Assembly: GCA_036507075.1 (NCBI GenBank)
Contig: DASXQR010000083.1
Coordinates: 32,001 to 96,000 of the forward strand
DNA length: 64,000 nucleotides
Source: Acidobacteriota bacterium
GTDB taxonomy: Bacteria; Acidobacteriota; UBA6911; JACQSX01
Reading direction: 5' to 3'
Positions 7,254 to 37,032 of the stretch are shown here, piece after piece. A program made the translations under genes and the position numbers. The stretch's first letter is position 1. Every line of letters begins with the position of its first letter. Below the pieces are notes generated by a model, which saw nothing but the letters and a program-made list of their open reading frames with translations, was not told the origin of the DNA and searched no databases.

Positions 7254-7910
7254 ATGTTGTTTGCCAATCGAGCTCAGGCGGGACGTGCGCTGGCTTCGCA
7301 ACTCACCGGCTATGCGGGGCGCCCGGATGTGGTGATCCTGGCATTACCCAGGGGTGGAGTTCCGGTGGCCTATGAGGTGGCTTTGCAGCTTCACGTCCCC
7401 ATGGACGTGTTTGTGGTGCGCAAGCTGGGAGTGCCGGGACATTCCGAGCTGGCTATGGGCGCATTGGCGTCCGGCGGCGTCCGTGTTTTGAACAAGGACG
7501 TTCTCGACAGCCTGGGAATCCCCGGCGAAATGATCGACGCCGTAACCGAGCGCGAGCGGCCGGAATTGGAACGTCGCGAACACCTTTATCGCGCCGGCCG
7601 GCCGCTGTTGCCCGTCGAAGGCCGAATCATCATTCTTATCGACGACGGCCTCGCCACCGGCTCGACAATGCGCGCCGCGGCGTCAGCTCTTCGCCGCCAG
7701 GCGCCGCAGAAAATCGTCGTCGCAGTTCCTGTGGCGCCGCGTTCCGTGCGCGAGGAGTTTGTGCGGGAAGTCGATGAAGTTGTATGCGCGGAAACGCCCG
7801 AACCTTTCCACGCCGTGGGGAACTGGTACCGGGACTTTGCGCAAACCACCGACAAGGAAGTGCGTGAGCTGCTGGAACGCGCCGAAGCTCTGAGCCGGGC
7901 AGGTGCCTGA
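7254..7910 (+). CDS. Phosphoribosyltransferase-like protein (Rv0571c/Rv2030c N-domain type)
   Basis: LALPRGGVPV, VRKLGVP, IDDGLATGSTM, WYRDFAQTTD. Confidence 0.9.
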   Translation: MLFANRAQAGRALASQLTGYAGRPDVVILALPRGGVPVAYEVALQLHVPMDVFVVRKLGVPGHSELAMGALASGGVRVLNKDVLDSLGIPGEMIDAVTERERPELERREHLYRAGRPLLPVEGRIIILIDDGLATGSTMRAAASALRRQAPQKIVVAVPVAPRSVREEFVREVDEVVCAETPEPFHAVGNWYRDFAQTTDKEVRELLERAEALSRAGA

Positions 7911-16859: not shown

Positions 16860-19800
16860 ATGAAATCAATCTCTCGCATTTTCGTGGCCTTCAGTCTGTC
16901 GCTCTGCGTGACACTGTGGGCTCAGGCTCAGGTGACTACAGGAAGCATCACCGGCGCGATCAAAGACGCCAGTGGCGCCGCTATCCCGGGCGTGGAAGTG
17001 ACCGCGCTCCATGTTGAAACGTCAACCACGCGCAAGGTGGTATCGGCCGGAGATGGCGCGTATACATTTTCCTCCCTTCCTATCGGCGCCTACGAGATTT
17101 CGGCTGTCCTGCCGGGCTTCAAAAAGAGCGTGCGGGGCGGCGTGGAACTGCACCTCGGCGACCATCTCAGCGTCGATATCACGCTCGAAGTGGGAGAGAT
17201 CGCGGAACAAATCTCGGTTGTCGCCGGCGCGATGCAAGTGCAAATGGAAAGCTCCGAGCAAAGCAGCCTGATCTCGGGCGAGCAGGTGCGTGAGTTGCAA
17301 CTGAACGGACGATCCTTCATGACCCTGCTGGAAATGCTTCCAGGGGTGGCTTCGGAGATGCCTGATCGGGCGGATCCGAATACCAATCCTGCACTGTCCA
17401 TCAACGGGGCACGCAGCTCGCAGTCAAATTTCAACATTGACGGCAGCAGCAACATGGACGTGATCGTGGGCAGCAGCTCGCTCAATACCTTCACGTCAGT
17501 GGACACCATCGCCGAGGTCAAGGTGATTACCTTGATTGCGCCCGCCGAATACGGTAAGGGAGGATTTTCGCAGGTCAATGTCGTCACGCGCGGTGGGACA
17601 AAGCACTGGCGCGGCTCAATTTACGAATTCTTCCGCAATGACGCATTGGACGCCAGAGACTGGCTGACCCACCTGGTTCTGCCGCTCAAGCTCAACAACT
17701 TTGGCTATACGCTTGGAGGACCGCTACTGCTTCCAGGCGGTTACAATCGCGCGCGCAACAAGACTTTCTTCTTCCTTACCCAGGAATTCAACCATATCAG
17801 CACCCGAGGCGCCGCCGTCAACACCAGGGTGCCCACGGCGGATGAGCGACGCGGAAATTTCAGCGCCCTTGGACCGGGCGCGGACGGGTTGTTCGGAACC
17901 GCTGACGACCCGGTCATCGATCCGGTCGCCGGATCAGGTTTTCCAAACGGGATCATTCCTTCCGAACGAATGGATTCGACTGCCGCCAAGCTGCTCACCC
18001 TTTACCCGCTGCCGAATTTTCGCGGCCCGGGGAATATCAATTTCACCTCGGCCGCCCCCAGTCTGCAGCGCTGGCGCGAGGAACTGATAAGAATCGACCA
18101 CAACCTCTCGCCTTCCTGGAAGATCTTCGGCCGCTGGGCTCAGGACAGCGCGTTCATCCGCAATCCCTATGGCGGCTCATCGGTTAGCTCGATTGCAACC
18201 AACTTTCCGGGAATCGGGACAACGCGAGCGGGCAGGCCGGGAAAAAACCTTGTGGTCAGCATGACCAATATCTTCAATCCGTCCCTGCTGAATGAGTTCA
18301 TGTTTACCTACTCAGGGCGCGAGATCACGCAGAATCCGCTGAGAGATGACGCGAACAGGGATGAGTTGGGAATCAGTATTCCGGAGATTTTCCCCGAGAA
18401 CATCGGAAACATAATCCCCACCATCAATCTCGGTTCCGGTTACGCTGCGCTCAATGTTTCACGCGTGTGGCTAAAACAACTTTTCAACCTGGAGTTCTCC
18501 GACAACTTGACCAAGATTGCCGGCCGCCACGCCCTCAAAACGGGTTTTCTTTACTCGTTCGGAGGCAATCGCGAAAACCCGACGGGTCCGAATACCAACG
18601 GCTCTTACACGTTTACCACGGGCTTTTCCCGCAATCCGGTCGCCAACATGCTGCTGGGTTTGCCCTTCAGTTACACGGAATCTGAAAGGCTGGTGGTTTC
18701 GCACGCGCGATTCGGTTTTCTTGAAGCCTACGTTCAGGATGACTTTAAGGCCACTGGCCGCCTGACGCTAAATCTTGGCATTCGATACTCGGCTTTCTTC
18801 AACCCCTACGACACCGAGAATGTGATGACCAATTTTCTTATCTCGGCATGGGACCCGGCGCGAGCCCCCCGGATCAATCCGGCCCCCGGCAGCGGCCTTC
18901 CGGTGGCGGGGACGGGGGATCCACTCAACGGCGTCATCATCGCCGGTAAGAATTCTCCCTTTGGCAAACGGGTTACCGGCAATAGTGTCGACTTGATCGG
19001 TCCGCGTTTCGGTTTTGCCTGGGTGCCCTTCAAAAGGGGAAAATTTGCGATTCGTGGAGGCTACGGAGTCTTCTACACGCGACCGCTCATCGGTACGTTT
19101 ATCAACAACGCCTTTGACAATCCTCCGTTTTCGCGATCGGTAACGATTCAACAGCCCGCGTTCAACAACCCCGGCGGAGGCCGTGAAGCCGCAGCAGGCG
19201 TGCCGAGCCTCACCGCCCTGAGCACTCCCATGCTGGCGCCCACAGTCCAGCAGTGGGGACTGGGCATCCAGCACGAGGTGTTCCGGCGCGCAATACTGGA
19301 TCTGTCCTACGTAGGCTCGCACGGTACCCACCTCATGAGACCCTATAACCTCAACAACCCGCTGCCCAGCGTCGACGTAGTGGAACGGCGCGTCCATGTC
19401 AACGCGCTCCGCCCTTTTCCCGGGTACGGCAGCATCACGGAGAGACAAAGCTCTGCTTCGAGCATTTATCATTCGCTTCAGGTCAAATTTGATCGCCGCG
19501 TTTCAAACAAGCTCTCACTCGGGGCCGCATATACCTTTTCCAAGAGTATTGACGACGCGTCAAGTGACCGGGGGGGAAGCGATGTACCGCCCGACAGCCG
19601 CAATACGCGCGCAGAACGAGGGCCTTCTGATTTTGATCGCGCGCACATCTTCACGACCAATTACATCTGGTACCTCCCCAGCATTGCGCGCCGTCCCGGC
19701 CTGGGACTGCTGCTCAACGGGTGGCAATTGTCCGGTATTACCCGCATCTGGTCCGGGAGACCGTTTGACGTAGCGCTCAGCACCGATGTCGCCGGGATCG

Positions 19801-20177
19801 GCGCAGTCCAGAATCAGCGGCCCAACGTCATAGCCGACACGGGCGGGCCGCGCAAACCTGACGAATGGTTCAACCGTGCTGCCTTCGCCCGCCCGGCCAA
19901 CGGCGCATTCGGCGATATGGGGCGAAACAGCATACAGGGCCCGGGGGTCCATAAATGGGACCTGGCCTTGTTCAAAAATTTCCGAGTCAGGGAGAATGCG
20001 CGGCTCCAGTTCCGTTCGGAAGCCTTCAATGCTTTCAACCATCCTTCGTTTTCAGCCGTGGGAAGGACTTTGAGAACCACCGCGACTACGGTGAATCCCA
20101 ACGTGGATAGCTTTGGGATCGTCACCGATACACGCGACGCGCGCGTAATGCAGTTTGCGCTGAAGTTGACGTTCTAG
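16860..20177 (+). CDS. TonB-dependent receptor (Oar-like, N-terminal carboxypeptidase-regulatory-like domain)
   Basis: Signal peptide, GSITGAIKDASGA, YEFFRND, NLGIRY, PRFGFAW, C-terminal QFALKLTF. Confidence 0.93.
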   Translation: MKSISRIFVAFSLSLCVTLWAQAQVTTGSITGAIKDASGAAIPGVEVTALHVETSTTRKVVSAGDGAYTFSSLPIGAYEISAVLPGFKKSVRGGVELHLGDHLSVDITLEVGEIAEQISVVAGAMQVQMESSEQSSLISGEQVRELQLNGRSFMTLLEMLPGVASEMPDRADPNTNPALSINGARSSQSNFNIDGSSNMDVIVGSSSLNTFTSVDTIAEVKVITLIAPAEYGKGGFSQVNVVTRGGTKHWRGSIYEFFRNDALDARDWLTHLVLPLKLNNFGYTLGGPLLLPGGYNRARNKTFFFLTQEFNHISTRGAAVNTRVPTADERRGNFSALGPGADGLFGTADDPVIDPVAGSGFPNGIIPSERMDSTAAKLLTLYPLPNFRGPGNINFTSAAPSLQRWREELIRIDHNLSPSWKIFGRWAQDSAFIRNPYGGSSVSSIATNFPGIGTTRAGRPGKNLVVSMTNIFNPSLLNEFMFTYSGREITQNPLRDDANRDELGISIPEIFPENIGNIIPTINLGSGYAALNVSRVWLKQLFNLEFSDNLTKIAGRHALKTGFLYSFGGNRENPTGPNTNGSYTFTTGFSRNPVANMLLGLPFSYTESERLVVSHARFGFLEAYVQDDFKATGRLTLNLGIRYSAFFNPYDTENVMTNFLISAWDPARAPRINPAPGSGLPVAGTGDPLNGVIIAGKNSPFGKRVTGNSVDLIGPRFGFAWVPFKRGKFAIRGGYGVFYTRPLIGTFINNAFDNPPFSRSVTIQQPAFNNPGGGREAAAGVPSLTALSTPMLAPTVQQWGLGIQHEVFRRAILDLSYVGSHGTHLMRPYNLNNPLPSVDVVERRVHVNALRPFPGYGSITERQSSASSIYHSLQVKFDRRVSNKLSLGAAYTFSKSIDDASSDRGGSDVPPDSRNTRAERGPSDFDRAHIFTTNYIWYLPSIARRPGLGLLLNGWQLSGITRIWSGRPFDVALSTDVAGIGAVQNQRPNVIADTGGPRKPDEWFNRAAFARPANGAFGDMGRNSIQGPGVHKWDLALFKNFRVRENARLQFRSEAFNAFNHPSFSAVGRTLRTTATTVNPNVDSFGIVTDTRDARVMQFALKLTF

Positions 20178-21579: not shown

Positions 21580-21910
21580 GCTGCGGACCTCCTGCGGCTT
21601 TGGGCTAATAATTATTTAAGATCCGGTCCCGAGGAATGGCAACCGGCCCACACTTGTAGAGACGCCCCAGGCGCAGCACCGCTGCCTTGCGGCGCCATGT
21701 CTGGTTTGCCGCGCAGAAAAGACTTGATCTCAGGGGTGTAATCTTTGTAAAAAGACCAAAACGGGGTGGAAAACGCTTTCCAAGAGTTTGCGTAGCGGCA
21801 GGGAAAGCCTTTGCGAGGCAACCGCGTCGACGGGAATGGGATGGCCACAGACTCAGTTCCACCAGAATTTAATCTGAAATAGGAAAACGTTTTCATGCGG
21901 GAGGTGATAC

Positions 21911-24900
21911 GTGAAAAGGGATACGCAGAAAGCAGCATCTGTGTTTGCGTTGCTGGTTTGCACTGTTCTGGCTTTGTACCCTGTGACGGTGAGCGGTCAG
22001 GAAGCTCGAGGCACCATCACGGGCAGGATCACGGACGCTAACAAAGCCGTGGTTCCCGGAGCCTCCGTGACAATCACAAACGTGGCGATGGGCATACCCA
22101 GCTCCGTGCTGAGCAACGATGTCGGCTGGTTCCAGGCGCCTTATCTGATTCCCGGAGGTTACCAGGTGGTGGTGGAGGTGCCCGGGTTCAAGAAGTACAT
22201 CCGCGATGGCATCGTTCTCCGCGTCAACGACACTCTGGAAGTGAATGTTCAGCTCGAAGTGGGTGAGATGGCTGACTCAATAACAGTCACTGCCAATACA
22301 CCGCTGCTTGAGTCAACTTCTGCATCCATGGGCCAGGTGGTGGATGAGCGGCGGGTGGCGGAACTTCCGATTCCACACGGTGAGCCCTACGCGCTCATAG
22401 GACTTGCCGGCGGCGTGGCGTTCGCGCGCGATCAACGGCTGGACCGGCCCTTCGAGCCGACCCATATTGTCGGCTACACGATGGATGGCACTCGAGCTAA
22501 CCGCAGCGACATTACCATTGACGGCGCGCCCGCCACGGCAACGGCCAACGCCAACGAAGTGATCTCTTCGTATGTTCCTCCGGCAGACATCGTCCAGGAA
22601 TTCAAAGTACAGACAGCCACGTTCGATGCCAGCTTTGGCAATACCGAAGGCGGCGTTACCAACCTGAGTCTGAAATCGGGAACGAACGCGTTTCACGGCA
22701 CGGCCTACTACACAAAAATGCTGCCGGGCCTTTTTGCGAATGATTTTTTTGCCAACGCCAACAAGATTCCGCGTCCGGATTTTAACTACAACCGGTGGGG
22801 TGGATCGCTGGGCGGCCCTGTGATCCTGCCAAAGCTGTATGACGGGCGCAACAAGACATTCTTCATGTGGGGTTACGAGGGCATAAAGGAAGCGCGGCCT
22901 CGAAATAACGGCACGCCCACAATACCGACTGAGAAGATGAAGAACGGCGATTTTTCCGAGTTGCTGGCAGTTGGTTCGCAGTACCAGATTTACAACCCCT
23001 TCACGCGCCGCGCCGTAGCCGGCGGCCGCTTCCAGCAGGATCCGTTCCCGGGCAATATCATCCCCGCAAACTTGGTTAATCCCGTTTCGAGAAAGCTTCT
23101 CGAGTATTTTCCCAAACCGCTGACGGCCGGAAACCCAGACGGCACAAATAACTTTCAGAATCCGAGCCTGAAGGAGCGGGCAAACTATTACACTCACACG
23201 GTTCGAGTGGATCACGCCCTGGGCGACAAGCAGAGGCTGTTTATACGCGGCAGTGTGTATCCGAGAAACAGCGACTACAACAATTTCTTCGGCAACATCG
23301 CCACCGGTGAGTGGTTCCAGTTCCTGTCGCGAGCCGCCACGATTGACGACGTATACACGCTCAACGCCACTACAGTGTTGAATGTGAGATACGGCTACAA
23401 CAGGTTCATACGAGTCACCAATTCGAATCCCGGCAACCGTGGAATGGACCTGACGACATTGGGATTTCCGGCTTCGTACGCGAGCTCGATACCCGAAGAT
23501 ATCCGGCGATTCCCGCGTCTTGACATCACAGGGTATCAGGGCACCGGCCAGGGAGGCGAGTTCAGGCCGAATGATACTCACTCCTTCGTCGCGACAATTA
23601 ATAAAGTGCTGGGCGTGCATTCTCTCAGGAGCGGCTTGGAATTTCGCTCCTACCGCGAGACGGATTCCTTTTTTGCCAACAACCAGACCGGCCAGTTCAA
23701 TTTCGACGCCACCTGGACGCGCGGGCCCCTGGACAATTCGCCTACTGCACCGGGCTCACTGGGACAGTCATTTGCCTCCTTTCTTCTGGGATTGCCATCC
23801 TCGGGCCTGGTCGTCCGGGCGGCAAGCTATGCAGAACAGTCGACATCGTGGGGCTTGTTCATTCAGGACGACTGGAAAGTCAGCTCGAAACTTACTTTGA
23901 ACATCGGGCTGCGATATGAGCTGGAAGGCCCGCTCACGGAGCGGTTTAACCGGACCGTGCGGGACTTTGATTTCAACGCCGCGCAACCGATCGAGTCACA
24001 GGTCAAAGCCAAGTACGCGCTCAGCCCTACTCCGGAAATTCCGGTAGACCAGTTCAGGGTGCGAGGCGGATTGCGGTTTGTGGCAGTAGGAGGGCAGCCT
24101 CGAGGGGCGTACGACACACCCAAGGAAAACTTCATGCCGCGGTTCGGTTTCGCCTGCAAACTGGACAACAGGACGGTAGTGCGCGGCGGTTACGGAATTT
24201 TCTTCGGCTTCCTCGGCCAGCGCCGCGGTGACGTAATTCAGAGCGGATTCAGCGCAACCACAAATCTGGTTCCGACTCTGGACAATGGCTTGACGTTCAT
24301 TGAAACGCTGTCGAAACCGTTTCAGAATGGGATCCAGGAACCGGTAGGAGCGGCTCTTGGCCCGCAGACTTTTCTAGGGCAGGGGATAACATTTTTCTAT
24401 CCCAGCCCGTTGTCGCCGTATATGCAGCGATGGGAACTTGGGTTCCAGCGCGAATTACCCGGCGGCTTTGTTGCCGGGGCAAGTTACGTTGGCAACCGTG
24501 GAACGCACATCGAGATCAGTCGAAATCTGAATGTGACACCCCAGAAGTATCTCAGCAAAAGCCCGGTGAGGGATCAGACGACAATTAACTATCTGTCGGC
24601 CAACGTACCCAATCCGTTCTTTCAACTTCTTCCGGCGACCGCTGTCACAGCTCTGAGGGGAACGAACATTGCGCGCGAGAGGCTGCTGCGCCCTTATCCT
24701 GCATTTGATTCGGTGACTTCGACGACCAACGACGGATATTCCTGGTATCACTCGCTGCAGGCAGGGATCGAGAAGAGATTTTCGAAGGGCTACACGTTGA
24801 TGGCGAATTACACCCTCTCGAAGTTCATGCAGGCGACCGAGCTCTTGAATGCGGATGATCCGCGACCGACCGAAGTAATCTCAGACATGGACTATCCGCA

Positions 24901-25432
24901 CCGGTTGTCGGTAAGCGGCATATACGAATTGCCCTTCGGCAAAGCCCGCCAGTTCCTTCACGGCGTTAACCCGTTTGTGTCGAAGATCGTCAGCGGCTGG
25001 CAGGTGTCCGGCATCTACGCCTATCAGAGCGGGCCGCCGATCAACTGGGGCAACATAATTTTTACTGGGAAAGTGAAGGACATCCGACTCCCCTCGGACC
25101 AGCAGGCGGCACAGCGCTGGTTTAACACCAATGCCGGTTTCGAGAAAGATTCGGCAAAACAGCTTGCCAGCAACGTCCGGACATTCCCTCAGAGATTCGG
25201 ATCGATTCGCGCCGACAACATCAGCAACTATGACCTTTCGATCATCAAGAACACGGAGATTGCCGAAGGAAAGAAGCTGCAGTTCAGGAGTGATTTCATA
25301 AATGCGTTCAACCACCCTCTGTTCCCCGCGCCCAACGTCACCCCCACGGCTGTTGCCTTCGGCTCGATCAGCCCCTCCAACCAGTCCAACTACCCGCGGC
25401 GCATCCAGCTAACCGCGAAGTTTTTGTTCTGA
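21911..25432 (+). CDS. TonB-dependent receptor (Oar-like)
   Basis: Signal peptide, [29 protein letters not shown]-terminal IQLTAKFLF. Confidence 0.93.
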
Positions 25433-25521
25433 ATGCTCTTCGTGTCCTTTGTGTCTTTGTGGTGGCAATAAATGCACCACGAAGGCACAGAGGCACCGAC
25501 AAGCCGTCACTTCCAGGGGTT

Positions 25522-25740
25522 CTGCACGCGAAGCACGGAGCCACATCCCGCAAAGGCGTGGTGGAAACCATGTAAGTTTGTGCGTTCCAAGCGAAATTCG
25601 CCGCCGAGCCATTATGAGGTTCGCCACGCTGGAGCAGTTGAAACCAACGGGCGATGGAAAAACGTAATGCCAGGGTCCGAGCCGACTCACCTGGTACCCA
25701 CCACGCCCTCGCGGGACGTGGCTCTGTGCTTCGCGTGCAG
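25522..25740. mobile_element. MITE/REPIN-like element with 49-bp imperfect terminal inverted repeats
   Basis: 25522-25570 is the near reverse complement of 25692-25740, flanking about 120 bp. Confidence 0.65.
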
Positions 25741-25867
25741 GCCCGGTCGATCAGCGAGCGCCAGGCTTCAATTTTCAGTCCTCGCCTTTTGCGTTATTCT
25801 TAGCGCTCTTGGCGTTCTTGGCGGTTAAGATTTTGGGAGTCCAATTTTCGTAAAAGAGAGAGATATT

Positions 25868-27013
25868 ATGAACTGGTCCCGCGGGTTCTATTTTGCTTTG
25901 GCACTGGGTATGGGATTCCTCCTGCCGTGCGGCGAGGGGATGGCGGTGGCAAAGAAGGCGCACATCCAAAAACAGCTCTTCAGAAAGACCGCCGAAGGAG
26001 AATCGGTGGATCTTTATACCTTAACGAATGCCAATGGTGTCGAAGCGAGGATCATGACCTTTGGCGGCATTGTGGTTTCTCTCAAGGCGCCCGATCGCAA
26101 GGGCAAGCTGGAGGATATCGTGCTCGGCTACGACAATCTGGAGGGCTACCTGAAAAATAACAGGCCCCATTTTGGCGCCCTCATCGGCCGGTACGGCAAT
26201 CGCATCGGGAAGGGCAGGTTCATCCTGAATGGCCGCGAATACAAGCTCGCACAGAACAACGGCGAAAATCACCTCCATGGCGGAATCAAAGGTTTCGACA
26301 AGGTGATTTGGAAAGCCCGAGAGGTCAAAAGCAAGGATGGCGTTGGGCTTGCGCTCAACTATGTCAGCAAGGATGCCGAGGAAGGCTATCCGGGGAATCT
26401 GTCGGTCACGGTGGTCTACACGTTGACCCATAAGAACGGGTTAAGAATCGACTACAGTGCGACAACGGACAAGGAGACAATTGTCAACCTGACCAACCAT
26501 TCGTATTTCAATCTGGCCGGCCGCGGAAGCATCCTCAATCATGAGGTGATGATCAATGCCGAAAGGTTCACGCCGGTCGATCAGGGGCTGATTCCGACAG
26601 GCGAGCTGCGAAGCGTCAGAGGAACGCCGATGGATTTTACGCAACAGACGGCCATCGGCGCCAGAATCGAGCAGCGCGACGAGCAACTGATCCTCGGCAA
26701 AGGCTATGACCACAACTGGGTGCTGAACAAGCGCAACGGCGAGCTTTCGCTGGCCGCCAGAGCTTATGAGCCGACGAGCGGGCGCATCCTGGAAGTCTAC
26801 ACCACCGAGCCGGGCGTACAGTTCTATACCGGAAACTTCCTGGATGGGAGCATCAGAGGGAAGGCGGGACAGACCTATCAAAAGCGTTATGGTTTCTGTC
26901 TTGAGACCCAGCATTTTCCAGATTCTCCCAACAAATCAAATTTCCCCTCAACAGTTCTCAAGCCGGGCAGGAAGTATACAACCACGACAATCTATGAGTT
27001 TTCTGCGAAATAG
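25868..27013 (+). CDS. galM: Aldose 1-epimerase (mutarotase), with signal-like N-terminus
   Basis: GRYGNRI, HLHGG, NLTNHSYFNL, GYDHN, CLETQHFPD. Confidence 0.95.
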   Translation: MNWSRGFYFALALGMGFLLPCGEGMAVAKKAHIQKQLFRKTAEGESVDLYTLTNANGVEARIMTFGGIVVSLKAPDRKGKLEDIVLGYDNLEGYLKNNRPHFGALIGRYGNRIGKGRFILNGREYKLAQNNGENHLHGGIKGFDKVIWKAREVKSKDGVGLALNYVSKDAEEGYPGNLSVTVVYTLTHKNGLRIDYSATTDKETIVNLTNHSYFNLAGRGSILNHEVMINAERFTPVDQGLIPTGELRSVRGTPMDFTQQTAIGARIEQRDEQLILGKGYDHNWVLNKRNGELSLAARAYEPTSGRILEVYTTEPGVQFYTGNFLDGSIRGKAGQTYQKRYGFCLETQHFPDSPNKSNFPSTVLKPGRKYTTTTIYEFSAK

Positions 27014-27228
27014 CCTTTCAAACCCGGTAAATGTTCTCAGAGATACAGCCGGCAGAACCGCAACCAGATGCGGCCGGCGCGCCTCAATTGCCACGATGAC
27101 CCGATGACACCAAGGCGGCACAGGGAGCTTACTCGAAGTTTCGGCGATGCGGATTGCGGCTTCAGCCCGTAATCGACTTCGAGTCATCGTGGCTTCGCGG
27201 CAGGTAAGAACTTTGCTAAAAGAGAACT

Positions 27229-28272
27229 ATGACCTGGGAACAGCGATGGCACCCGTTGCGCGAGGAATGGATTATTGTCGCCGCGCATCGGCAGAACCGT
27301 CCTTGGATCGGCAAGACAGTCGAGCATAAGGAGGCGGCCTTGCCCGATTACCTGCCCGATTGCTACCTTTGTCCCGGCAATACCCGCATCAGTGGCCAGC
27401 GCAACGCGCATTACACAAGCACGTTTGTTTTTGACAACGATCACCCGTGCGTAGGCCTTGATGCACCCCAGGATGTCGTCACGCCAAACGGGATTTACCG
27501 CAGCGGGCCCGCGACCGGCATTGCGCGGGTAGTTTGCTACAGCCCGAAGCACAATCTGGCGCTCGCCGAGCTGGAAATCTGTGAGATTGCGGAACTGCTG
27601 GGCGTCTGGCGGGAGCAATACATTGATCTGGGGAGCCACGATGAGATCCGCCACGTGCTGATCTTTGAGAACAAGGGCGAGGTTGTCGGTGTCTCCAACC
27701 CGCATCCGCACTGCCAGATTTACGCCACCAATTTTGTCTTCAAAACGATCGAGACGGAAGCGCGGGTTTCTCAAAAGCATTTGGCCGAAACAGGGCGGAT
27801 TCTTTTCCAGGACATCCTCAAAGCAGAACGCGACGAGGGGAAGCGGATCATCTCTGAGAATGAATCGGCGATTGCTTTCCTGCCTTATTTCGCGCGCTAC
27901 GCCTACGAGGCGTTTGTAGCGGCCAAACATACGCACCCGAGTCTTGCGACACTCTCCGAAGCCGAGGTGCGCGACTTGGCCGCAGTGCTCAAATGCCTGC
28001 TGGTAAAGTTTGACAATCTGTGGCGCATGCCATTCCCTTACGTCATGACGCTGCATCAGGCGCCGACCGATGGCGGCGACTACCGCGGTTTTCATTTTCA
28101 CATCGAGTTTCATCCGCCTCTGCGGCAGCCGAATCTGCTGAAATACCTGGCGGGTCCTGAGATCGGCGGCGGCAATTTCCTGAGTGATACCGCGCCCGAG
28201 GAAAAGGCCGCCGAATTGCGCGCCCAATCGGATATTCACTACAGGCAGGCAAGGCAGGAGGACAAGCCATGA
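27229..28272 (+). CDS. galT: Sugar-1-phosphate uridylyltransferase (GalT family)
   Basis: [35 protein letters not shown]. Confidence 0.9.
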
Positions 28273-29312
28273 GACGGACCTCGCGCGCACCTGCTGTGTA
28301 TGAAGTGCAGGTATTGCTTGCGCCGCTGCGTCGTTTGCACGAGAAGATCAGAGACGCGGTAGTCGCGGCCTGCGAGCGGGCGGCACTTGAAGATCTGGCG
28401 CGTGTTGAGGATGACTGCTCAGAAGGCGACACCATTTATGCCGTCGATCGCATCAGTGAGGATTTACTGATTGAATTATTCGAGAGCGAGATTGCCCCGG
28501 TTGCCCCGCTTGTTCTAATCGGCGAAGGCCTGGCGGGCGGCAAGGTGGCCCTGCCTCGCGGGACGGTCGAATCGAATGCGCTTTGGCGCGTTATAGTTGA
28601 TCCGATAGACGGCACGCGGGGTTTGATGTATCAGAAACGAAGCGCCTGGGTTTTGACGGGTGTGGCGCCGAATCGCGGAAGCGAAACCAATCTGCAGGAC
28701 ATCGAGCTCGCCCTGCAGACTGAGATTCCGCTCGTCAAACAGCACCTGTGCGATGCGCTTTGGGCCATCCGCGGCAGGGGAGCCAATGCCGAGCGGTACA
28801 ACCGTCTAAGCGGTGAACGCCGGCTGCTGCGACTGCAGCCTTCACAAGCGCGCAGCATTCGCCATGGTTTTGCCGGCCTGGCGCGTTTTTTCCCCGGCGC
28901 TCGCGAAGAACTGGCGGCAATTGACGAGGAGATCGTGCGCGGCGCGCTCGGTGATGCAACGCAGGGCAAGGCGCATTGTTTTGAGGATCAATACCTGTCC
29001 AGCGCCGGACAGATTTACGAACTGATGGCAGGTCATGATCGTTTTGTGGCCGATTTGCGTCCGCTGATGGAGCCATTGCTCAGGCGGCGCGGGCAGGCGC
29101 TGGGCATCTGCTGCCACCCTTACGACCTCTGTACCGAGCTGATCGCACGCGAAACAGGCGTTATCGTCACCGATGAGAATGGCAATGCTCTGCGCGCGCC
29201 GCTCAATGCGGAAGCCGATCTCGCGTGGGCGGGTTATGCAAACAAGTACATTCGAGAAGAAATCGAACCTTTGCTCCAGCGTGCTCTTAAAAGTCGCGGC
29301 CTCACTTTGTGA
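28269..29312 (+). CDS. Inositol-monophosphatase/FIG-superfamily phosphatase-like protein
   Basis: [24 protein letters not shown] motifs; overlaps galT stop. Confidence 0.75.
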
Positions 29313-29378
29313 TCTTTGTGTTACAAGTCGGCAACTTCTCGCTTTCTTTAACAGAGTTTTGTCTGGCGCCTACAATCC

Positions 29379-29472
29379 TTCACCGCAGAGGCGCAGAGGA
29401 CGCAGAGAATGCGCAGAGTTTCGTTTGCATGTCTCTGCGTAACCTCTGCGTTCTCTGCGCCTCTGCGGTGAA
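29379..29472. repeat. Periodic inverted-repeat element
   Basis: TTCACCGCAGAGGCGCAGAGGACGCAGAG ... CTCTGCGTTCTCTGCGCCTCTGCGGTGAA. Confidence 0.85.
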
Positions 29473-29615
29473 GGAATGTGACTTCCCACATCAGCATATG
29501 ACGATCAGGCTGCCAAGCGGGAACATCCTATTTTTGGTTGCGGCTTTGCCGGGCCGCGTCTTTGTGGTGAAAATTCATAGGTAATCCAAGTACCAGCCCC
29601 CGGGTGTGCAATCGC

Positions 29616-31109
29616 ATGAAGCAACAGGCAGGAATGTATCAGATCATTCGCGGCGCCACACATAACCTGCCCGATGTCGAACAATTTATTGCGACTCTGA
29701 ACAGGCTCGAGCAGAGCCCGGTGCCTGAGGCGCACTGGCTTTTTGATCCCGACAGGGAACTCATCGTTACGCGAGCGCCGGGGCGGTTGGACGTGATGGG
29801 CGGCATCGCGGACTACTCCGGCTCGCTGGTCCTGGAGCTGCCCATTCAGGAAGCCACACTGGTGGCCCTCCAGCATGATTCCTCTCGCCGGCTCAAGATT
29901 GTCAGCTTGTCGGAAGATTCCAGCCAGGGTTTGGTCTTTGAGATGCCGCTGGCGGATTTTGAGAGCGAAGGGACGCCCATAGATTACGAAATTGCCCGCG
30001 CCTGCTTTCAGCGCGACCCGGCGCGGCACTGGGCGGCGTATGTGGCGGGTGTGTTTCTGGCGCTGATGCGCGAACGCCGCATCCATTTTCAAGACGGGGC
30101 ACGAATGCTGATTGCCTCACGCGTTCCACCGGGAAAGGGAGTAAGCTCGTCAGCCGCGCTCGAGGTCGCCGTCATGCAGGCGGTTGCCACGGCATTCGAG
30201 GTCCAGATCCAATCGCGCGAGATGGCACTGCTGTGCCAGAAGGTTGAGAATCTGGTGGCTGGTGCGCCATGCGGCGTTATGGATCAAATGACAGCCGTCT
30301 GCGGACAAACCAACCGCCTGCTCGCCCTGTTTTGTCAGCCTGCAGAACTGCGCGAAATGATCGTGCTTCCGGACAAGATCTCGTTCTGGGGCTTGGATTC
30401 CGGAATGCGCCACGCGGTCAGCGGCTCCGACTATGAGTCTGTGCGCGTTGGAACATTCATGGGCTATCGAATCATCGCTGAGCTGGCGGGTCTGAAGGCC
30501 CGGATAACAGCGCCTGGCGAATCTGTTCGCATTGACGATCCGTATTGGGGAGGCTATCTGGCGAACCTGACGCTGTCGGAGTTCGAGCAACACTACGCTA
30601 TGCACCTGCCAGAACAAATCCGCGGCTCGGATTTCCTGTCGCGCTATCATGGCACGACCGATTCGGTGACCCGGGTTGCGCCTGATCGAAGCTACGCGGT
30701 GCGGGTCCCGACTGCTCACGCCATCTACGAGCACTGGCGCGTGAGCCGCTTTGCGGCGTTGATCGGCGGCGCGGCGCATGCGCAGACCTTAGAGTCGTTG
30801 GGCGAGCTGATGTATCAGTCACATGCAAGTTACTCGGCATGCGGGCTGGGTTCGGCGCGCACGGACCGACTGGTCCAACTGGTTCGCGAAGCCGGGCCGG
30901 CTCAAGGGCTTTACGGCGCCAAGATCACTGGCGGAGGCAGCGGCGGCACGGTCGCCATCCTCGCCCGCCCCGACGCGGACGAGTTGATAGCACGCGTGGC
31001 TGAACAGTACGCCACAGAGACAGGCCACCAGCCGCAGATTTTCTCCGGCTCCTCGCCCGGCAGCGCCGCCTTCGGACATTTGAAGCTGATCCGAGACGCT
31101 TCAAAGTAG
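29616..31109 (+). CDS. GHMP sugar kinase resembling the kinase domain of plant L-arabinokinase
   Basis: RAPGRLDVMGGIADYSGSLVL, PPGKGVSSSAA, CGVMDQM, GAKITGGGSGG. Confidence 0.85.
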   Translation: MKQQAGMYQIIRGATHNLPDVEQFIATLNRLEQSPVPEAHWLFDPDRELIVTRAPGRLDVMGGIADYSGSLVLELPIQEATLVALQHDSSRRLKIVSLSEDSSQGLVFEMPLADFESEGTPIDYEIARACFQRDPARHWAAYVAGVFLALMRERRIHFQDGARMLIASRVPPGKGVSSSAALEVAVMQAVATAFEVQIQSREMALLCQKVENLVAGAPCGVMDQMTAVCGQTNRLLALFCQPAELREMIVLPDKISFWGLDSGMRHAVSGSDYESVRVGTFMGYRIIAELAGLKARITAPGESVRIDDPYWGGYLANLTLSEFEQHYAMHLPEQIRGSDFLSRYHGTTDSVTRVAPDRSYAVRVPTAHAIYEHWRVSRFAALIGGAAHAQTLESLGELMYQSHASYSACGLGSARTDRLVQLVREAGPAQGLYGAKITGGGSGGTVAILARPDADELIARVAEQYATETGHQPQIFSGSSPGSAAFGHLKLIRDASK

Positions 31110-31227
31110 CGCCTGGGCCGCAGCTCCGCTGCCCCCAACGTAGCGACGCGGCATGCCGCGTCAGAGTCAGGCCGCGACATGTCGCGGCCAGGAAAGGATG
31201 CAGCCTTGCTCATCGTGTTGGAAAAAG

Positions 31228-31372
31228 AGCCCGCCGTTTTTTTTGGCGGGCGCCAGCATGTGGCCCATGGCGAAGCGAAGCGGAGCCGTGGGATTGCGAC
31301 TCTCTCAAAATGAGATCAGTCCGCCCGCTTTTCAGTGCGGGCGGCAGGCGCCCGCCCTGAAAAGCGGGCGGG
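31228..31372. repeat. Cluster of GC-rich palindromes (REP-like)
   Basis: GCCCGCC-(G,T9)-GGCGGGC hairpin; CCGCCCGCTTTTCAG ... CTGAAAAGCGGGCGG inverted pair. Confidence 0.6.
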
Positions 31373-31435
31373 CTGCTTTGCAGCGCTTGGGACGGCATGG
31401 CGCGTCTCTACGGCTGAAAATTTACGATAGAGGCA

Positions 31436-33901
31436 ATGATGAAAATCACGAGAAAACAGCTCGCCATCGTCACATCAATAACACTCTGTTTCAGCGCGAT
31501 TAGCTCCATCGGCGAACAAAAACAGGTCCCTGAAGCGCGACCCGCCGCGCCTCGAGACGATTACCCCGTCAAGCCGGTGCCATTTACGGCCGTCCACTTC
31601 AACGACGTCTTCTGGGCGCCACGCATCGAGATCAATCGGACAGTCACGATCCCCTTCGCATTTCAGAAATGTGAGGAGACGGGACGCGTCGACAACTTCC
31701 TGCGCGCCGCCGCCGCGCTCAGGGGTGAAGTCTCCGGGGATAAGAAACTGCCGGGCTATCCTTTCGACGACACCGATTTATATAAAGTGATCGAAGGAGC
31801 TTCCTACGCGCTGAGCGTTCATCCAGATCCTAAGCTTGAGGCCTATGTCGATGGCCTGATTGAAAAGATTGCTGCCGCGCAGGAGAAAGACGGTTACCTC
31901 TACCCCGCTCGCACCATCGATCCGGAACATCCCCATCGGTGGGCGGGCGCCAAACGCTGGGAGTTGGAAAGGGTGGACAGCCATGAACTTTATAACCTCG
32001 GCCACCTTTATGAAGCCGCCGCCGCCCACTATCAAGCCACGGGGAAGAAATCGCTGCTTGAGATTGCTCTCAAGACCGCTGAGTTACTCGACAGGACCTT
32101 CGGCCCTGGCAAGGAATCCATTTGGCCCGGCCATCAAATTACCGAGATGGGTCTGGTCAAGCTCTACCGCGTCACGGGCGACGAGCGTTACCTGACCCTG
32201 GCCAGGTTCCTGCTTGATGCGCGCGGACCGGACGGCACCCGGGGCAGTGGCCGCACATACAATCAATCGCACGCGAAAGTGGTGGATCAAACCGAAGCGG
32301 TCGGGCATGCCGTTCGCGCTACTTACATGTATTCAGGCATGGCTGATGTGGCGGCGCTGACGGGCGACGCGTCTTACATTAATGCCATAGGCAAAATCTG
32401 GGAGAATGTCGCGGGCAAAAAACTTTACATTACCGGAGGTATCGGCGCTACCGGTTCGGGCGAGGCCTTCGGCATCAACTACCAGTTGCCCAACATGAGC
32501 GCCTACAACGAGACGTGTGCCGCCGTGGGCAATGACTTTTGGAATCACCGCCTATTCCTGCTTCATGCCGACGCCAGGTACATTGACGTCATGGAGCGGA
32601 CGCTTTTCAACGGCTTGATTTCGGGCGTGTCGCTCGACGGCAAAACATTTTTCTATCCCAACCCGCTGGAGTCTAAAGGTCAGCACCAACGCAGCCCCTG
32701 GTTTGGCGTCGCCTGTTGTCCCGGCAATATCACGCGCTTCCTGGCCTCGCTTCCCGGGTATGTCTACGCCCAGCGGGGTGACACGCTCTATGTCAATCTT
32801 TACGTGAGCAGCACGGCCGACATAAGCCTGGACAAGGACCGCACAGTGAAATTAATCCAGGAGACGCGCTACCCGTGGGAGGGTGCTGTCAAGATAACGG
32901 TCAACCCGGACAAGATTGAGAAATTCACGATCAACATGCGTGTGCCCGGCTGGGCGCGAAATGAAGTTGTACCCAGCGACCTGTACCGCTTCGTGGATAA
33001 GGTCGAAGAGCCGGTTGTGCTCAAGATCAACGGCAAATCCGTCGCCTTCAGACTTGAAAAGGGTTATGCCGGTTTGACTCGCCAATGGAAAAAGGGCGAC
33101 GTGATCGAGCTTGCATTGCCGATGCCGGTCCGCCGGGTCGCGGCCAACGAACAGGTAGCAGCCGACCGCGGGCGCGTGGCGCTGCAGCGCGGCCCGATTG
33201 TTTACTGCGCCGAGTGGCCTGACAATCTGGACAGCCACGTCCGCAATCTGGTGCTGCCCGACACGACGAAGCTGATGGCCGAATACAGACCGGACCTTTT
33301 GAACGGCGTTGTAGTCATCAAAGGCAGGGCGCTGGGTCTGGCTTATGATGGCCAGGGTAAAGCCATTAAGAAGGAGCAGGATTTCACGGCGATTCCCTAT
33401 TACGCCTGGGCGAACCGCGGGCAGGGAGAAATGACTGTCTGGATTCCCAACGACGAGGCAAGCGCCAGACCCTTGCCATTCCCGACGATCGCGACCACCA
33501 GCAAAGTGACCACCTCAGGTCGGAAGAACCCTCGAGCAATCAACGACGGCGAGGAACCTCGCTCATCTGGGGACCCGGATTCCTTCTTCGACTGGTGGCC
33601 CAGGAAAGGCACTACGGAATGGGTCGAGTACGTCTTTGAGAAACCGGCCATGGTTTCGCAAGTCGAGCTTTATTGGTTTGACGACACGGGCCGCGGCGAG
33701 GTTCGAGTGCCCAAGTCCTGGCGCATCCTCTACAAGGATGGCGACGAGTGGAAGCCCGTCGAGAATAACGAACCCTACGGCATCGAGAAAGACCGCTACA
33801 ACAAAACCACCTTCAAGCCTGTCACGACAAGCACCCTCCGCCTTGAGGTCACCCTGCAGCAAACCTGGTCTGCCGGAATCCAGGAGTGGAAAGTAAAGTA
33901 G
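31436..33901 (+). CDS. Glycoside hydrolase family 127 (beta-L-arabinofuranosidase-like) with C-terminal discoidin-like domain, exported
   Basis: HELYN, GHAVRA, YNETCAAV, ACCPGN, RGPIVYC, IPYYAWANRG. Confidence 0.9.
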   Translation: MMKITRKQLAIVTSITLCFSAISSIGEQKQVPEARPAAPRDDYPVKPVPFTAVHFNDVFWAPRIEINRTVTIPFAFQKCEETGRVDNFLRAAAALRGEVSGDKKLPGYPFDDTDLYKVIEGASYALSVHPDPKLEAYVDGLIEKIAAAQEKDGYLYPARTIDPEHPHRWAGAKRWELERVDSHELYNLGHLYEAAAAHYQATGKKSLLEIALKTAELLDRTFGPGKESIWPGHQITEMGLVKLYRVTGDERYLTLARFLLDARGPDGTRGSGRTYNQSHAKVVDQTEAVGHAVRATYMYSGMADVAALTGDASYINAIGKIWENVAGKKLYITGGIGATGSGEAFGINYQLPNMSAYNETCAAVGNDFWNHRLFLLHADARYIDVMERTLFNGLISGVSLDGKTFFYPNPLESKGQHQRSPWFGVACCPGNITRFLASLPGYVYAQRGDTLYVNLYVSSTADISLDKDRTVKLIQETRYPWEGAVKITVNPDKIEKFTINMRVPGWARNEVVPSDLYRFVDKVEEPVVLKINGKSVAFRLEKGYAGLTRQWKKGDVIELALPMPVRRVAANEQVAADRGRVALQRGPIVYCAEWPDNLDSHVRNLVLPDTTKLMAEYRPDLLNGVVVIKGRALGLAYDGQGKAIKKEQDFTAIPYYAWANRGQGEMTVWIPNDEASARPLPFPTIATTSKVTTSGRKNPRAINDGEEPRSSGDPDSFFDWWPRKGTTEWVEYVFEKPAMVSQVELYWFDDTGRGEVRVPKSWRILYKDGDEWKPVENNEPYGIEKDRYNKTTFKPVTTSTLRLEVTLQQTWSAGIQEWKVK

Positions 33902-33978: not shown

Positions 33979-35994
33979 TTAAAATCCGCGCGTCCATCGC
34001 AGCGTGAGCAGATTGGCCTGAAAATTATCTCCCCGTATGAGCTCTTCAATATAGTAAGTGCGCTGCATATCGATCGCGATGCGGCCCGCCCGCGGTAAAT
34101 CATAATAAACGGTTCCCGTCACCAGCGGCCAGGTAATGGGACCATACTTCGGGGGCTCGCCGCTGATTTCTCCCGCACCTGTGGTCCTGACGAAGTTTCC
34201 CGTCAAGTTGATGCCCAGACGCCGCATCGGGTTAGCGGCCACTCCCGCCCGCCATACACGGTTCAGCGTTTGATCCCGCCACAGCGTGGTCAAAGGGGCC
34301 GTGCCCCGCAGGAACGTAACCGACGCGGTGGCAAAAAAACTGTCATAAGCAAATCCGCCATGGACCGCGATGCGGTCGTTGAGCGCGTAGGATACGGCTG
34401 CGGCATTGGAGCGCACATTGTTCCGATAAGCCGTATCGTGCAGCTCGCGGTCACGAACTACGAGGTTATCCTCCACCGAGATTTTTTCCGAAGGCTGAAA
34501 GCGCAGCACCACGCGCGTTCCCCGGTCGACGTGCGGGCTGATGCGCGTGTAAGAACCGCTGCTCACGATGTTATGGAAATCCGCCCGCACGCTCCACAGG
34601 CTGGACGGACGGTAATAGACGCTGGCGATCGGCCAAACGCTCTTGACACGCCGCGTGCGTTGGGGATCGATCCGATTGTCCTCAAGCGCTTTCGTGTCGC
34701 GATTCAAATAGCGAATGCCCGGTCGGATCACGAGCGAGTGCAGCGGAAGAAATTCCAACGCCAGATCGACTTGATGCGTACCCTGCCGCCATTCTGTCTC
34801 CACTTCCTCCGAAGCCGAAGTAGTTGTGTCGCGCAGGCTCTGAAAATGACCCACGCTGTCGACATGAAATCGGGAATAGCGATAATCGGCGTGGAAGTTC
34901 ACCCACTCATTAAGGCTCAGCGAAAGGCCCTGGTCGATGACGTGATTTGGCTCGCTCACCTGGCCTCGTCCCGACATGGAGATGGCATAGGGCGCAAATG
35001 TCGTGCCGGAGCTGTTGGTCCGCGCCGTTCCGATAAATGATGCATCCAGGGTCGCGGGTCCTCGATAGCGATAAAAGATATAACCGCCGCGCAGCTCGGT
35101 ACGCGGGTTCAATTTCCCCGTGTAGGAGAACTCACTCAAGGGGGTCTTCAGTCGCCGAAATTCCGACCATGAAATATTGGTGGCTTGTTCGCGCGCCGTG
35201 GCCGTTTCGTCGACATTGATGCTTCGCTCCGGGGAAGTGAAATTGCGCCCGCTTGAGTTCTGTTCGAAGGTCTGGTAACCGGTACGGTAGTGAAAATTCC
35301 AATCGCGCCATGTATAGCTGGCGCCGGCTGCGAAGCGATTTGCGATTTCATCGAGCGGCACTTCGACGTAATAGGGATTGGCCCTGAGAAACGATCCCCA
35401 GAGGGTCGGAGCTCCGAAATATTCCAGCGTTCGCGTAGTGAAATTAACCCCATCGCGACTGCTGCGGTCGTACTCCAACTCAAATCGAAGATTGTCAGTT
35501 GCGTGGAGCACCAGGCTGGCAGAACCAAAGCGCCGCACGGTCGCCCAGTCATGATTGTTGGTGAGGCTATGCAGTCCCGGCGGCGCCAACACGTTGTCAT
35601 TACGATCCCAGTAAAAGTAGCTTTGGCGGAAGTTGACGCGCAGATCATAAAGGCCGTTCTTTCGCAACGTTAATTGACCGCCGGGATAGGGATCGCCGCC
35701 CAGACCGCTGAGCGTGAGCGTGAAACTGTCGGCAAAGCGCGATGACGAAGTTTCCTTACGCTGACCTGAGAAATCGACATCCAGCAGCCGGAACCCCTTT
35801 TGCAGTCCGAATAACTCCAGAAACTTCTCTCGGCGCCCCCCGACATCGACAAACCGGTATCCGACGGTGACTGACCCCTGCAGATCAAAATCACTCGCCG
35901 CGGGTTGCGCCGGTTCTTGAGCCTGCGCAGAGGCAGAGAGCAGAAGCAGCAGGGCCAGAGTGAGCGAAAAGGGAGCAACAGTTCGCAGTTTCAT
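33979..35994 (-). CDS. Outer-membrane beta-barrel, MtrB/PioB-type partner of the decaheme cytochrome
   Basis: Signal peptide, amphipathic beta-strand pattern, terminal F (RWTRGF), directly downstream of decaheme gene. Confidence 0.75.
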   Translation of the reverse strand: MKLRTVAPFSLTLALLLLLSASAQAQEPAQPAASDFDLQGSVTVGYRFVDVGGRREKFLELFGLQKGFRLLDVDFSGQRKETSSSRFADSFTLTLSGLGGDPYPGGQLTLRKNGLYDLRVNFRQSYFYWDRNDNVLAPPGLHSLTNNHDWATVRRFGSASLVLHATDNLRFELEYDRSSRDGVNFTTRTLEYFGAPTLWGSFLRANPYYVEVPLDEIANRFAAGASYTWRDWNFHYRTGYQTFEQNSSGRNFTSPERSINVDETATAREQATNISWSEFRRLKTPLSEFSYTGKLNPRTELRGGYIFYRYRGPATLDASFIGTARTNSSGTTFAPYAISMSGRGQVSEPNHVIDQGLSLSLNEWVNFHADYRYSRFHVDSVGHFQSLRDTTTSASEEVETEWRQGTHQVDLALEFLPLHSLVIRPGIRYLNRDTKALEDNRIDPQRTRRVKSVWPIASVYYRPSSLWSVRADFHNIVSSGSYTRISPHVDRGTRVVLRFQPSEKISVEDNLVVRDRELHDTAYRNNVRSNAAAVSYALNDRIAVHGGFAYDSFFATASVTFLRGTAPLTTLWRDQTLNRVWRAGVAANPMRRLGINLTGNFVRTTGAGEISGEPPKYGPITWPLVTGTVYYDLPRAGRIAIDMQRTYYIEELIRGDNFQANLLTLRWTRGF

Positions 35995-36003
35995 ACCTCC
36001 GCC

Positions 36004-37032
36004 TCATTGTAGAAAGAATGGACTGATATTGGAGCCGTGAATTGTCGCGTGGCAGCGTACACACTCGCCCCGAGTTGCAAAACCCAAGCGGCCGTGCGGC
36101 ACATTAACCGCAAACGGATCGACGTGACACTGCAGGCAGAGAAAACGTCCTTCGCGGCGCAGCAGCATATTTCGTGTCACTGTTCCATGGGGACTGTGAC
36201 AGGCGACGCAGCCTTCCACTTTAACGGCGGCATGCTCGTGGATAAACGGACCCCGCTTTTCCACGTGGCAGCTGACACAGGCCTCCCAATTCGTTTTTCT
36301 CAGTTGCGGCCGGTTCGCGCTGCCGTGAGCGTTATGGCAATCGGTGCATTTCATCAGACCCTCGGGGACTCGATGATGCGTGGGAAGCGCAAACTGTGCC
36401 TGGATAGTACGGTGACAGGTGACGCAAAGCTCCGACTGCGGCTTGCGCAGCAGGCTCTCACTGAGCCAGCGTCGTTCTTCAGGGAGTACAGGTGAACGGA
36501 AAAAGTGCGCCTGCGCTACCGGAGATTCCAAACGCTCGGAATGTTTTTTCTCTTCAATCTGCAAATGCGGGGCATGACACTGTTCGCACGACACCCCGTG
36601 CACCTTGTGTTCCGAGCGCGAGAAGAAATTCTGGTCTTTGTTCGTTGTATGGCACCGGATGCACCGTTCCGCGTTTTCTGTCGGCTTCCCATGAAAAGCA
36701 AAGATCAGCTTCTTCGCCTGCAGAATTTTTGTGTCGTCGGTGCCGGCATCCGTCATGCCATCTGCGTGCGCCTTACCCGGCCCATGGCATGACTCGCAGC
36801 CGGTTCCCGGACCCGTCGCTTTGGCGGATGCGTGGACAGTTTTTGCAAATTGCGCGGCTTCAAGCGCGTGGCAATTCGCACAGGTCTCGGCGCCTGCATA
36901 GTCCGCCGGTTTTCCCGCCAGTGGGGCTTTCCAGGCTGTTGAAGAAGGATGTGCCGTCGCCGGCTGCTTTTGAGGCAGCACCGGCCAGGTCAGCGCGCAC
37001 AGGAGAACGCCGGTGACAATGACTAGCTTCAC
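36004..37032 (-). CDS. Periplasmic decaheme cytochrome c (DmsE/MtrA/PioA/MtoA family)
   Basis: Ten CxxCH motifs, CESCHGPG, RGPFIHEH, CHATIHGSN; signal peptide. Confidence 0.92.
   Translation of the reverse strand: MKLVIVTGVLLCALTWPVLPQKQPATAHPSSTAWKAPLAGKPADYAGAETCANCHALEAAQFAKTVHASAKATGPGTGCESCHGPGKAHADGMTDAGTDDTKILQAKKLIFAFHGKPTENAERCIRCHTTNKDQNFFSRSEHKVHGVSCEQCHAPHLQIEEKKHSERLESPVAQAHFFRSPVLPEERRWLSESLLRKPQSELCVTCHRTIQAQFALPTHHRVPEGLMKCTDCHNAHGSANRPQLRKTNWEACVSCHVEKRGPFIHEHAAVKVEGCVACHSPHGTVTRNMLLRREGRFLCLQCHVDPFAVNVPHGRLGFATRGECVRCHATIHGSNISPFFLQ

Follow-up and report, generated by a model that had tools for sequence, protein, structure and literature searches.

A 64,000-nucleotide stretch of DNA from an Acidobacteriota bacterium (assembly GCA_036507075.1, contig DASXQR010000083.1, positions 32,001 to 96,000; hereafter the window) carries three neighboring genes for a GalT-like uridylyltransferase, a phosphatase of the IMPase/FBPase superfamily and a GHMP sugar kinase. 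These three genes probably specify a Leloir-type cycle that was rebuilt for pentoses, and that would turn L-arabinose into D-xylose for catabolism by epimerising C4 on a UDP-linked sugar. The analysis rests on gene identities, folds, residues, linkage and genome content, from which the enzymatic steps are predicted. An earlier interpretation made from the letters of the DNA alone (the sequence-only reading) had proposed a Leloir-type L-arabinose pathway with a plant-like arabinokinase in a run of six co-oriented genes, and had named a kinase phylogeny, conservation of the trio and absence of araABD as useful checks. All six genes are present on the + strand between 21911 and 33901, and their families were matched by profile searches.

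In the proposed cycle, the GH127 glycosidase and the TonB-type receptor that flank the trio would help to release and import arabinose, and a mutarotase would set its anomer. The ARA1-type kinase would convert L-arabinose to beta-L-arabinose-1-phosphate, and GalT would move UMP from UDP-xylose to this product, giving UDP-arabinose and xylose-1-phosphate. A 4-epimerase of the GalE family, encoded in this genome on another contig, would return UDP-arabinose to UDP-xylose, and a UDP-xylose synthase encoded beside galE could prime the cycle. L-arabinopyranose corresponds to D-galactose, and D-xylopyranose to D-glucose, with C6 removed; because it has no C6 hydroxyl, xylose-1-phosphate cannot exit via phosphoglucomutase, and a dedicated phosphatase would therefore be called for. 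The IMPase-fold enzyme would hydrolyse xylose-1-phosphate, pulling the cycle forward, and XylA and XylB would carry the released D-xylose to xylulose-5-phosphate. The kinase would be expected to ignore xylose and the phosphatase to spare arabinose-1-phosphate, since ATP would otherwise cycle in vain; the predicted cost is 2 ATP per pentose, as against 1 for AraABD. Galactose is covered by a separate canonical GalK. A bacterial UDP-xylose 4-epimerase is already known (Gu et al. 2011, as cited in PMC8196924).

The kinase gene (29634–31109, + strand, 491 aa) most likely starts at ATG 29634 and not at GTG 29604, in agreement with the database copy P0001 and with the starts of homologs, and its product is classed by homology and phylogeny as a stand-alone ARA1-type GHMP sugar-1-kinase. 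Its 120 best longer homologs are 43–51% identical to it over 92–100% of its length, and the named ones among them are plant or algal proteins, mostly L-arabinokinases. Identity to the GalKs of E. coli and of the same genome is 25–26%, and the protein falls under all five galactokinase cut-offs (for example, 145 against 227 for TIGR00131). A quick IQ-TREE phylogeny of 50 rows placed 32 bacterial and 9 plant sequences together against 9 GalKs with a support of 100. The sugar-binding motif PGRLDVMGGIADYSG that the sequence-only reading had singled out was confirmed at 29778–29822 (+ strand), with Gly-Ile at the place of the GalK Glu-His; GGIADY thus replaces the GalK signature GEHTDY and occurs together with GVMDQ and DYxxV, as in ARA1. 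The residues corresponding to R28, D37, Y38, D174 and Y223 of E. coli GalK are kept throughout an alignment that comprises 92 bacterial and 16 plant sequences along with 27 GalKs. At the position of E34-H35, by contrast, Gly is found in 92/92 bacterial and 16/16 plant sequences, followed by Ile in 93% and 100% of them respectively, whereas Glu-His is retained in 27/27 GalKs. This pair binds the C6 hydroxyl in GalK, which arabinose does not have, a role for which our literature search gave no supporting paper. All kinase pocket residues that were checked agree with ARA1. Identity, pocket residues and tree together uphold the earlier claim that the kinase resembles the kinase domain of plant ARA1 and not GalK; it is orthologous to the ARA1 kinase domains and a predicted L-arabinose 1-kinase, with L-arabinose still the best guess for its substrate. 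ARA1 is a known arabinose 1-kinase (PMC2823444), which phosphorylates L-arabinose to L-arabinose-1-phosphate and carries an extra N-terminal domain (PMC12281597); the first 360 residues of plant ARA1 gave zero matches in the genome or the fetched loci at E 1e-3.

The family to which this kinase belongs is large: it takes in all of the 8000 candidates scored, and 1436 50%-clusters were counted at E 1e-30, GalKs possibly among them. The nearest named homologs come from Acidobacteriota, and others were found in Chloroflexota, Planctomycetota, KSB1 and Latescibacterota. A close, crystallised relative, deposited as 'AbGHMP' (PDB 9ULX/9ULY), aligns over residues 11–495 with 715 bits, shares the same motif and is about 70% identical as read off the alignment; no paper naming it came up in the literature searched, and a prior characterisation may lie behind it. 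We considered whether plant ARA1 arose from within the bacterial sequences: it is nested among them in the quick tree, but an approximately unbiased test does not reject bacterial monophyly (p 0.60, 23 rows), and we claim no direction. Lone, divergent ARA1-like kinases (38–40% identity) also exist at loci L099 and L100 (genomes G267 and G095) and L098 (G213), where galT and the phosphatase are absent. Two of them adjoin an EamA transporter, one of these also a DeoR regulator. All three come from genomes in which neither the phosphatase nor xylA was matched, and they possibly serve a different sugar or role.

The GalT-like gene (27229–28272, + strand, 347 aa) scores above the TIGR00209 cut-off (305.7 against 102.1) and under that of PRK11720 (332.6 against 448). 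Its product retains the HPH nucleophile, Gln168, Arg28/Arg31, Asn77/Asp78 and the zinc ligands. The hexose-1-phosphate site of human GALT comprises K311, F312, V314, Y316, E317, Q323, N153 and Q168 (PMC5081055); here four of the eight residues are kept and four replaced (F>Y, V>A, Y>P and Q>L, the Q323 position bordering an alignment gap). The four replacements recur in 97–100% of 68 cluster GalTs and in 0/5 canonical GalTs; the Glu tracking the 4'-OH is among the residues kept. Such a site fits a changed sugar that still arrives as two C4 epimers, with a tie to the loss of C6 that is our own suggestion, and a UDP-xylose:arabinose-1-phosphate exchange is predicted for the cluster enzyme. The genome holds a third, remoter GalT-family gene on contig C187 (approximately 34980–35987), 28% identical to the cluster GalT.

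The phosphatase gene (28269–29312, + strand, 347 aa) has a weak Pfam match of 28.1 bits and falls under the NF009321 cut-off, and the assignment comes from its AlphaFold model (pLDDT 90.3), which adopts the IMPase/FBPase fold. The best match is an archaeal IMPase/FBPase (Z 27.8, root-mean-square deviation 2.1, 250 aligned residues, 19% identity); all fold matches listed lie at 14–21% identity and Z 24.5–27.8, with no subfamily prominent among SuhB, HisN, FBPase IV and CysQ. Across 63 phosphatase sequences E86, D111, I113, D114, T116, D286 and the DPIDGT motif are invariant, and they presumably include all the metal and nucleophile-activating residues of IMPase-type hydrolases. A distinctive CHPYD motif and approximately 20% identity to characterised enzymes set the protein apart, and its look-alikes in the structure atlas are named just 'inositol monophosphatase family'. 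We therefore treat it as an uncharacterised IMPase/FBPase subfamily, with a predicted activity as xylose-1-phosphate phosphatase. Of the two things said of it in the sequence-only reading, the IMPase-like family is borne out by the fold match; under catabolism via D-xylose, the reading favored by the context described below, the sugar-1-phosphate valve would give way to an obligatory exit step on xylose-1-phosphate. Two related observations concern other phosphatases. Loci L172–L184 hold a paralogous subfamily (44–54% identity), unlinked, in genomes whose cluster is without the phosphatase. A ComB-family (2-phosphosulfolactate) phosphatase lies upstream of galT-kinase at L043:4142–4870 (directly) and L052:1888–2616 (one gene further); we did not adopt it as a replacement, and the same genomes hold a 53–54% IMPase-type homolog elsewhere.

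From 569 confirmed GTDB stretches, the best 80 were taken as related loci. In 50 of these, the galT, phosphatase and kinase genes follow one another without interruption, so that the grouping is not a matter of chance, and the conservation that the sequence-only reading had asked about is present; galT as such occurs in 64/80 and the phosphatase in 55/80. The TonB receptor, the mutarotase and the GH127 of the window are accessory, variable components and not part of the core: TonB genes are found in 15/80 loci (merely 25–33% identical to the window receptor), mutarotases in 10/80 and best-matching GH127 copies in 3/80. More frequent neighbors are GH51 (32/80; any arabinofuranosidase family, 38/80), galE (30/80), a sugar ABC binding protein (23/80), xylA (21/80) and xylB (13/80), with one or the other of the last two in 26/80. 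When the trio loci are limited to the 31 that extend for 5 kb or more to each side, arabinofuranosidases are found in 23, xylA or xylB in 19 and galE in 16. In 10/80 loci xylA begins no more than 1.2 kb from the end of the kinase gene, and gene orders vary, including kinase-galE-xylA, kinase-xylA (L045), kinase-xylB (L039) and, in a Chloroflexota locus (L070), xylA-galT-phosphatase. Searches for AraA and the xylA family, which covered the genomes of 50 of the 80 loci, matched xylA in 49/50 and AraA in 1/50. The counts over the 80 loci and the 50 genomes include G333 (locus L033), a genome flagged as unpublished, in which the trio and xylA are present and AraA has no match; with it left out the figures become 49/79 for the contiguous trio, 48/49 for xylA and 1/49 for AraA, and the conclusions do not depend on it.

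Other open reading frames at 60 trio loci were also scanned (110 of 119 representatives, with family matches at E 1e-15). Glycosyltransferase families gave 0 matches among these 110, and the degradative families GH2, GH42, GH43, GH115, PL4 and esterases were represented; a gene like that for UDP-xylose synthase (uxs) was seen in none of the cluster loci. The sequence-only reading had left undecided whether the module serves salvage or catabolism, and what becomes of UDP-arabinose. Taken together, galE, xylA, xylB, importers and degradative enzymes, without glycosyltransferases, favor catabolism via D-xylose.

The genome of the window, which is 95.7% complete, has no match for AraA, and no AraB or AraD over the cut-off, just weak FGGY and aldolase-like matches. 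The absence of araABD that the sequence-only reading had anticipated was thus observed, and it is weaker evidence than had been implied, because araA is rare across the phylum (13 of 301 Acidobacteriota genomes, evenly drawn). An oxidative L-arabinose route was likewise not found in the genome, whose one IlvD/Edd-family gene has an N-terminal domain scoring best as dihydroxy-acid dehydratase. The genome does encode a canonical galT-galK pair (contig C177), xylB-xylA (C145), two GH51 enzymes and a second GH127/146-like protein, and a separate canonical GalK accompanies the kinase in 43/47 kinase-carrying genomes. Its single galE lies directly upstream of a uxs-like gene (the pair at 7475–9484 of contig C144, locus L083), and the latter shares 64% identity with a Sinorhizobium meliloti pSymB gene that resembles UDP-glucuronate decarboxylase. 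G335, another genome without galE in its cluster, has the two genes paired in this way too.

In the phylum sample of 301 genomes, the kinase was found in 13, the phosphatase in 12 and both in 10; a further genome, G252, has a partial kinase gene where a contig ends. GH51 is present in 13/13 kinase carriers against 48/288 other genomes, and xylA in 10/11 module carriers against 50/290 others. When only GH51-positive genomes are compared, xylA is present in 9/10 module carriers against 20/51 (nominal p 0.004). AraA was found in 0/11 module carriers of this sample. The module is patchy, as just 1 of 20 relatives of the source genome carries the kinase. One module carrier, G204, has its xylA in two pieces (contig C4, 2844034–2845031), through either a frameshift or an assembly error.

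Several observations weigh against a xylose-yielding cycle. The related loci come mostly from related Blastocatellia, and the counts are accordingly not independent. Among 25 genomes with a phosphatase-less locus, 6 have no match and 19 have a homolog elsewhere (two at 65–67% identity, the rest at 37–54%). In G251 (L185:9628–11402) a phosphatase ortholog (63%) is followed by araD and is divergent from a sodium:solute symporter, and the kinase, AraA and xylA are all without a match in that genome. G285, approximately 100% complete in 230 contigs, has the module and no xylA match. Among GH51-positive genomes, 37/61 have neither the module nor AraA and xylA is present in 8/11 AraA users, so that the co-occurrence of module and xylA may reflect general pentose use; mutual exclusion with araA was also dropped as a claim, as the zero overlap has a p of 0.10 among the 61. 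No galE was matched in 4/30 carrier genomes. The position of galE apart from the cluster and beside uxs in the source genome fits UDP-pentose biosynthesis or salvage too. An attempt to assign the cluster GalEs as UDP-xylose epimerases by similarity did not discriminate: of the two S. meliloti pSymB paralogs used for comparison, the one linked to uxs scores higher with 31/32 cluster GalEs and also with 10/10 other GalEs (we take these two genes to be Uxe and ExoB).

The pairing of galE with uxs bears on a salvage role, which we hold to be unlikely though it fares best among the alternatives. Kinase and GalT would here make UDP-arabinose for cell-surface glycans, with UDP-glucose as UMP donor, and the phosphatase would act as a valve against toxic sugar-1-phosphates. 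Plants use ARA1 together with the pyrophosphorylase USP in just such a salvage, and surplus UDP-arabinose is toxic there (PMC12281597); a detoxifying phosphatase has a precedent in AraL of Bacillus subtilis (PMC3207120), the ortholog next to araD in G251 could be read in the same way, and the galE-uxs pair of the source genome would itself make UDP-pentoses. Against this stand the lack of glycosyltransferases among the 110 neighboring frames and of uxs-like genes at the cluster loci, whose neighbors are importers, hydrolases and xylAB, and the failure to find other arabinose catabolic routes in a genome rich in GH51 and GH127.

Somewhat more doubtful is a kinase whose preference has moved to another sugar (D-fucose, D-galactose or D-xylose), or which accepts such a sugar as well, so that the module would serve that sugar or a mixture from arabinogalactan or arabinoxylan. 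Identity to ARA1 stays below 51%, the solved relative bears no more specific name than 'AbGHMP', GH42, GH2 and pectin enzymes lie near some loci, and GHMP sugar kinases can accept varied C5 substituents (FKP, PMC11982464). The pocket residues checked nevertheless all agree with ARA1, and the separate canonical GalK and the presence of GH51 in every one of the 13 carriers speak for arabinose. Xylose in particular is disfavored by a conserved Asp that, presumably, selects the galacto configuration. Least probable of all is a catabolic use of arabinose in which the exit is not free xylose, with the IMPase-fold protein acting on another intermediate or like a mutase and xylAB lying nearby since arabinoxylan yields both sugars: the CHPYD motif, the remoteness from characterised enzymes, G285 without xylA and the commonness of xylA in pentose users would suit it, but all the positions that we take to bind metal and activate the nucleophile in a hydrolase are invariant, and no further enzyme family recurs in the loci. 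Conversion of arabinose to D-xylose remains the account that we prefer.

Upstream of the trio in the window lie a gene for a TonB-dependent-type outer-membrane receptor (21911–25432, + strand, 1173 aa; PF25183 at E 1e-199, also PF13620 and PF00593), which likely imports an oligosaccharide, and one for an aldose 1-epimerase of the GalM family (25868–27013, + strand, 381 aa; PF01263, E 2e-100), which scores under the galM_Leloir cut-off (339 against 398 bits) and has an N-terminus that looks by eye like a signal peptide. Downstream, the GH127 glycosidase (31436–33901, + strand, 821 aa; PF07944, E 2e-110) has a signal-like N-terminus, a three-domain core and a C-terminal F5/8-type module, and contains ETC and CC motifs that we take to be its zinc/catalytic motifs. 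Its nearest structures are 6EX6 (805 bits) and the beta-L-arabinofuranosidases 4QJY and 3WKW, and its score against the aceric acid hydrolase model (488) is under the cut-off of 950; it is likely a beta-L-arabinofuranosidase.

The galT and phosphatase genes share 4 nt and form the sole coupled pair; as the other gaps measure 215–435 nt and three of them contain long hairpins or inverted repeats (25522–25740, 29372–29479 and 31317–31375), a single transcript is not established. Words from these hairpins recur 139–1252 times across the genome, in the manner of REP or MITE elements, and a scan for promoters and terminators returned chance-level results. A perfect 12-bp palindrome (21883–21894, no strand assigned) ends 16 nt upstream of the TonB gene start and is a possible repressor or operator site, with a resemblance to LacI-type operators. 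It has 2 exact copies in the genome against 0.2 expected, the other being on contig C65, and a weaker copy lies about 115 nt upstream. It is absent (at up to 2 mismatches) from 5/6 other promoter regions scanned, with no exact copy in the related loci, and was dropped as a regulon marker for want of conservation. Further upstream, at 16860–20177, lies another TonB-type receptor gene from the Pfam family of the cluster receptor; a gene of the erythromycin-esterase family, on the opposite strand, stands between it and the cluster. On the other side, 33979–37032 (- strand) encodes a multiheme cytochrome c and then a 671-aa protein with no Pfam match that resembles an outer-membrane barrel, a pair reminiscent, we assume, of MtrA/MtrB.

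If the proposed cycle is correct, it would be a further bacterial route for L-arabinose, found across Acidobacteriota and sharing its kinase with plant arabinose salvage, and would explain how a major sugar of plant walls is used by araA-less Acidobacteriota and other environmental bacteria. Two enzyme subfamilies, so far uncharacterised, would receive a function (as a pentose GalT and a xylose-1-phosphate phosphatase), plant ARA1 would gain a bacterial context, and small single-domain enzymes would become available for UDP-arabinose and UDP-xylose synthesis and for channelling arabinose into strains that use xylose. A bacterial arabinose-1-kinase pathway or xylose-1-phosphate route was not found in the literature searched, outside which most subscription papers lie. 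The interest of such a route is tempered by the parts being known families and by the crystallised kinase relative, and a publication may be under way.

Among known systems, AraABD shares with the module the predicted purpose and the xylulose-5-phosphate endpoint and no enzymes, and epimerises C4 on ribulose-5-phosphate, whereas the module is predicted to do so on a UDP-sugar; oxidative routes of the Weimberg/Dahms type share the predicted purpose and, again, no enzymes. Another known system is Uxs/Uxe of S. meliloti, where a GalE-family enzyme interconverts UDP-xylose and UDP-arabinose (PMC8196924) and to which the galE-uxs pair of the source genome is similar; it differs in its biosynthetic direction and has no kinase, GalT or phosphatase. 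Plant ARA1/ARA2 (EC 2.7.1.46) with USP share the kinase domain, its pocket motifs and its clade against GalK, but the module kinase is without the N-terminal glycosyltransferase-like domain of ARA1, its partner is GalT and not a UTP pyrophosphorylase, and its context is degradative. In its predicted working the module resembles the Leloir pathway of E. coli (galETKM), with which it has in common a mutarotase, a GHMP sugar-1-kinase, an HPH uridylyltransferase, GalE in many relatives and a predicted UMP exchange. It departs from that pathway in its ARA1-type kinase (26% identical to E. coli GalK), the altered sugar site of its GalT, the IMPase-fold phosphatase predicted to take the place of the phosphoglucomutase exit, and its linkage to arabinofuranosidases and xylAB alongside a separate canonical galT-galK.

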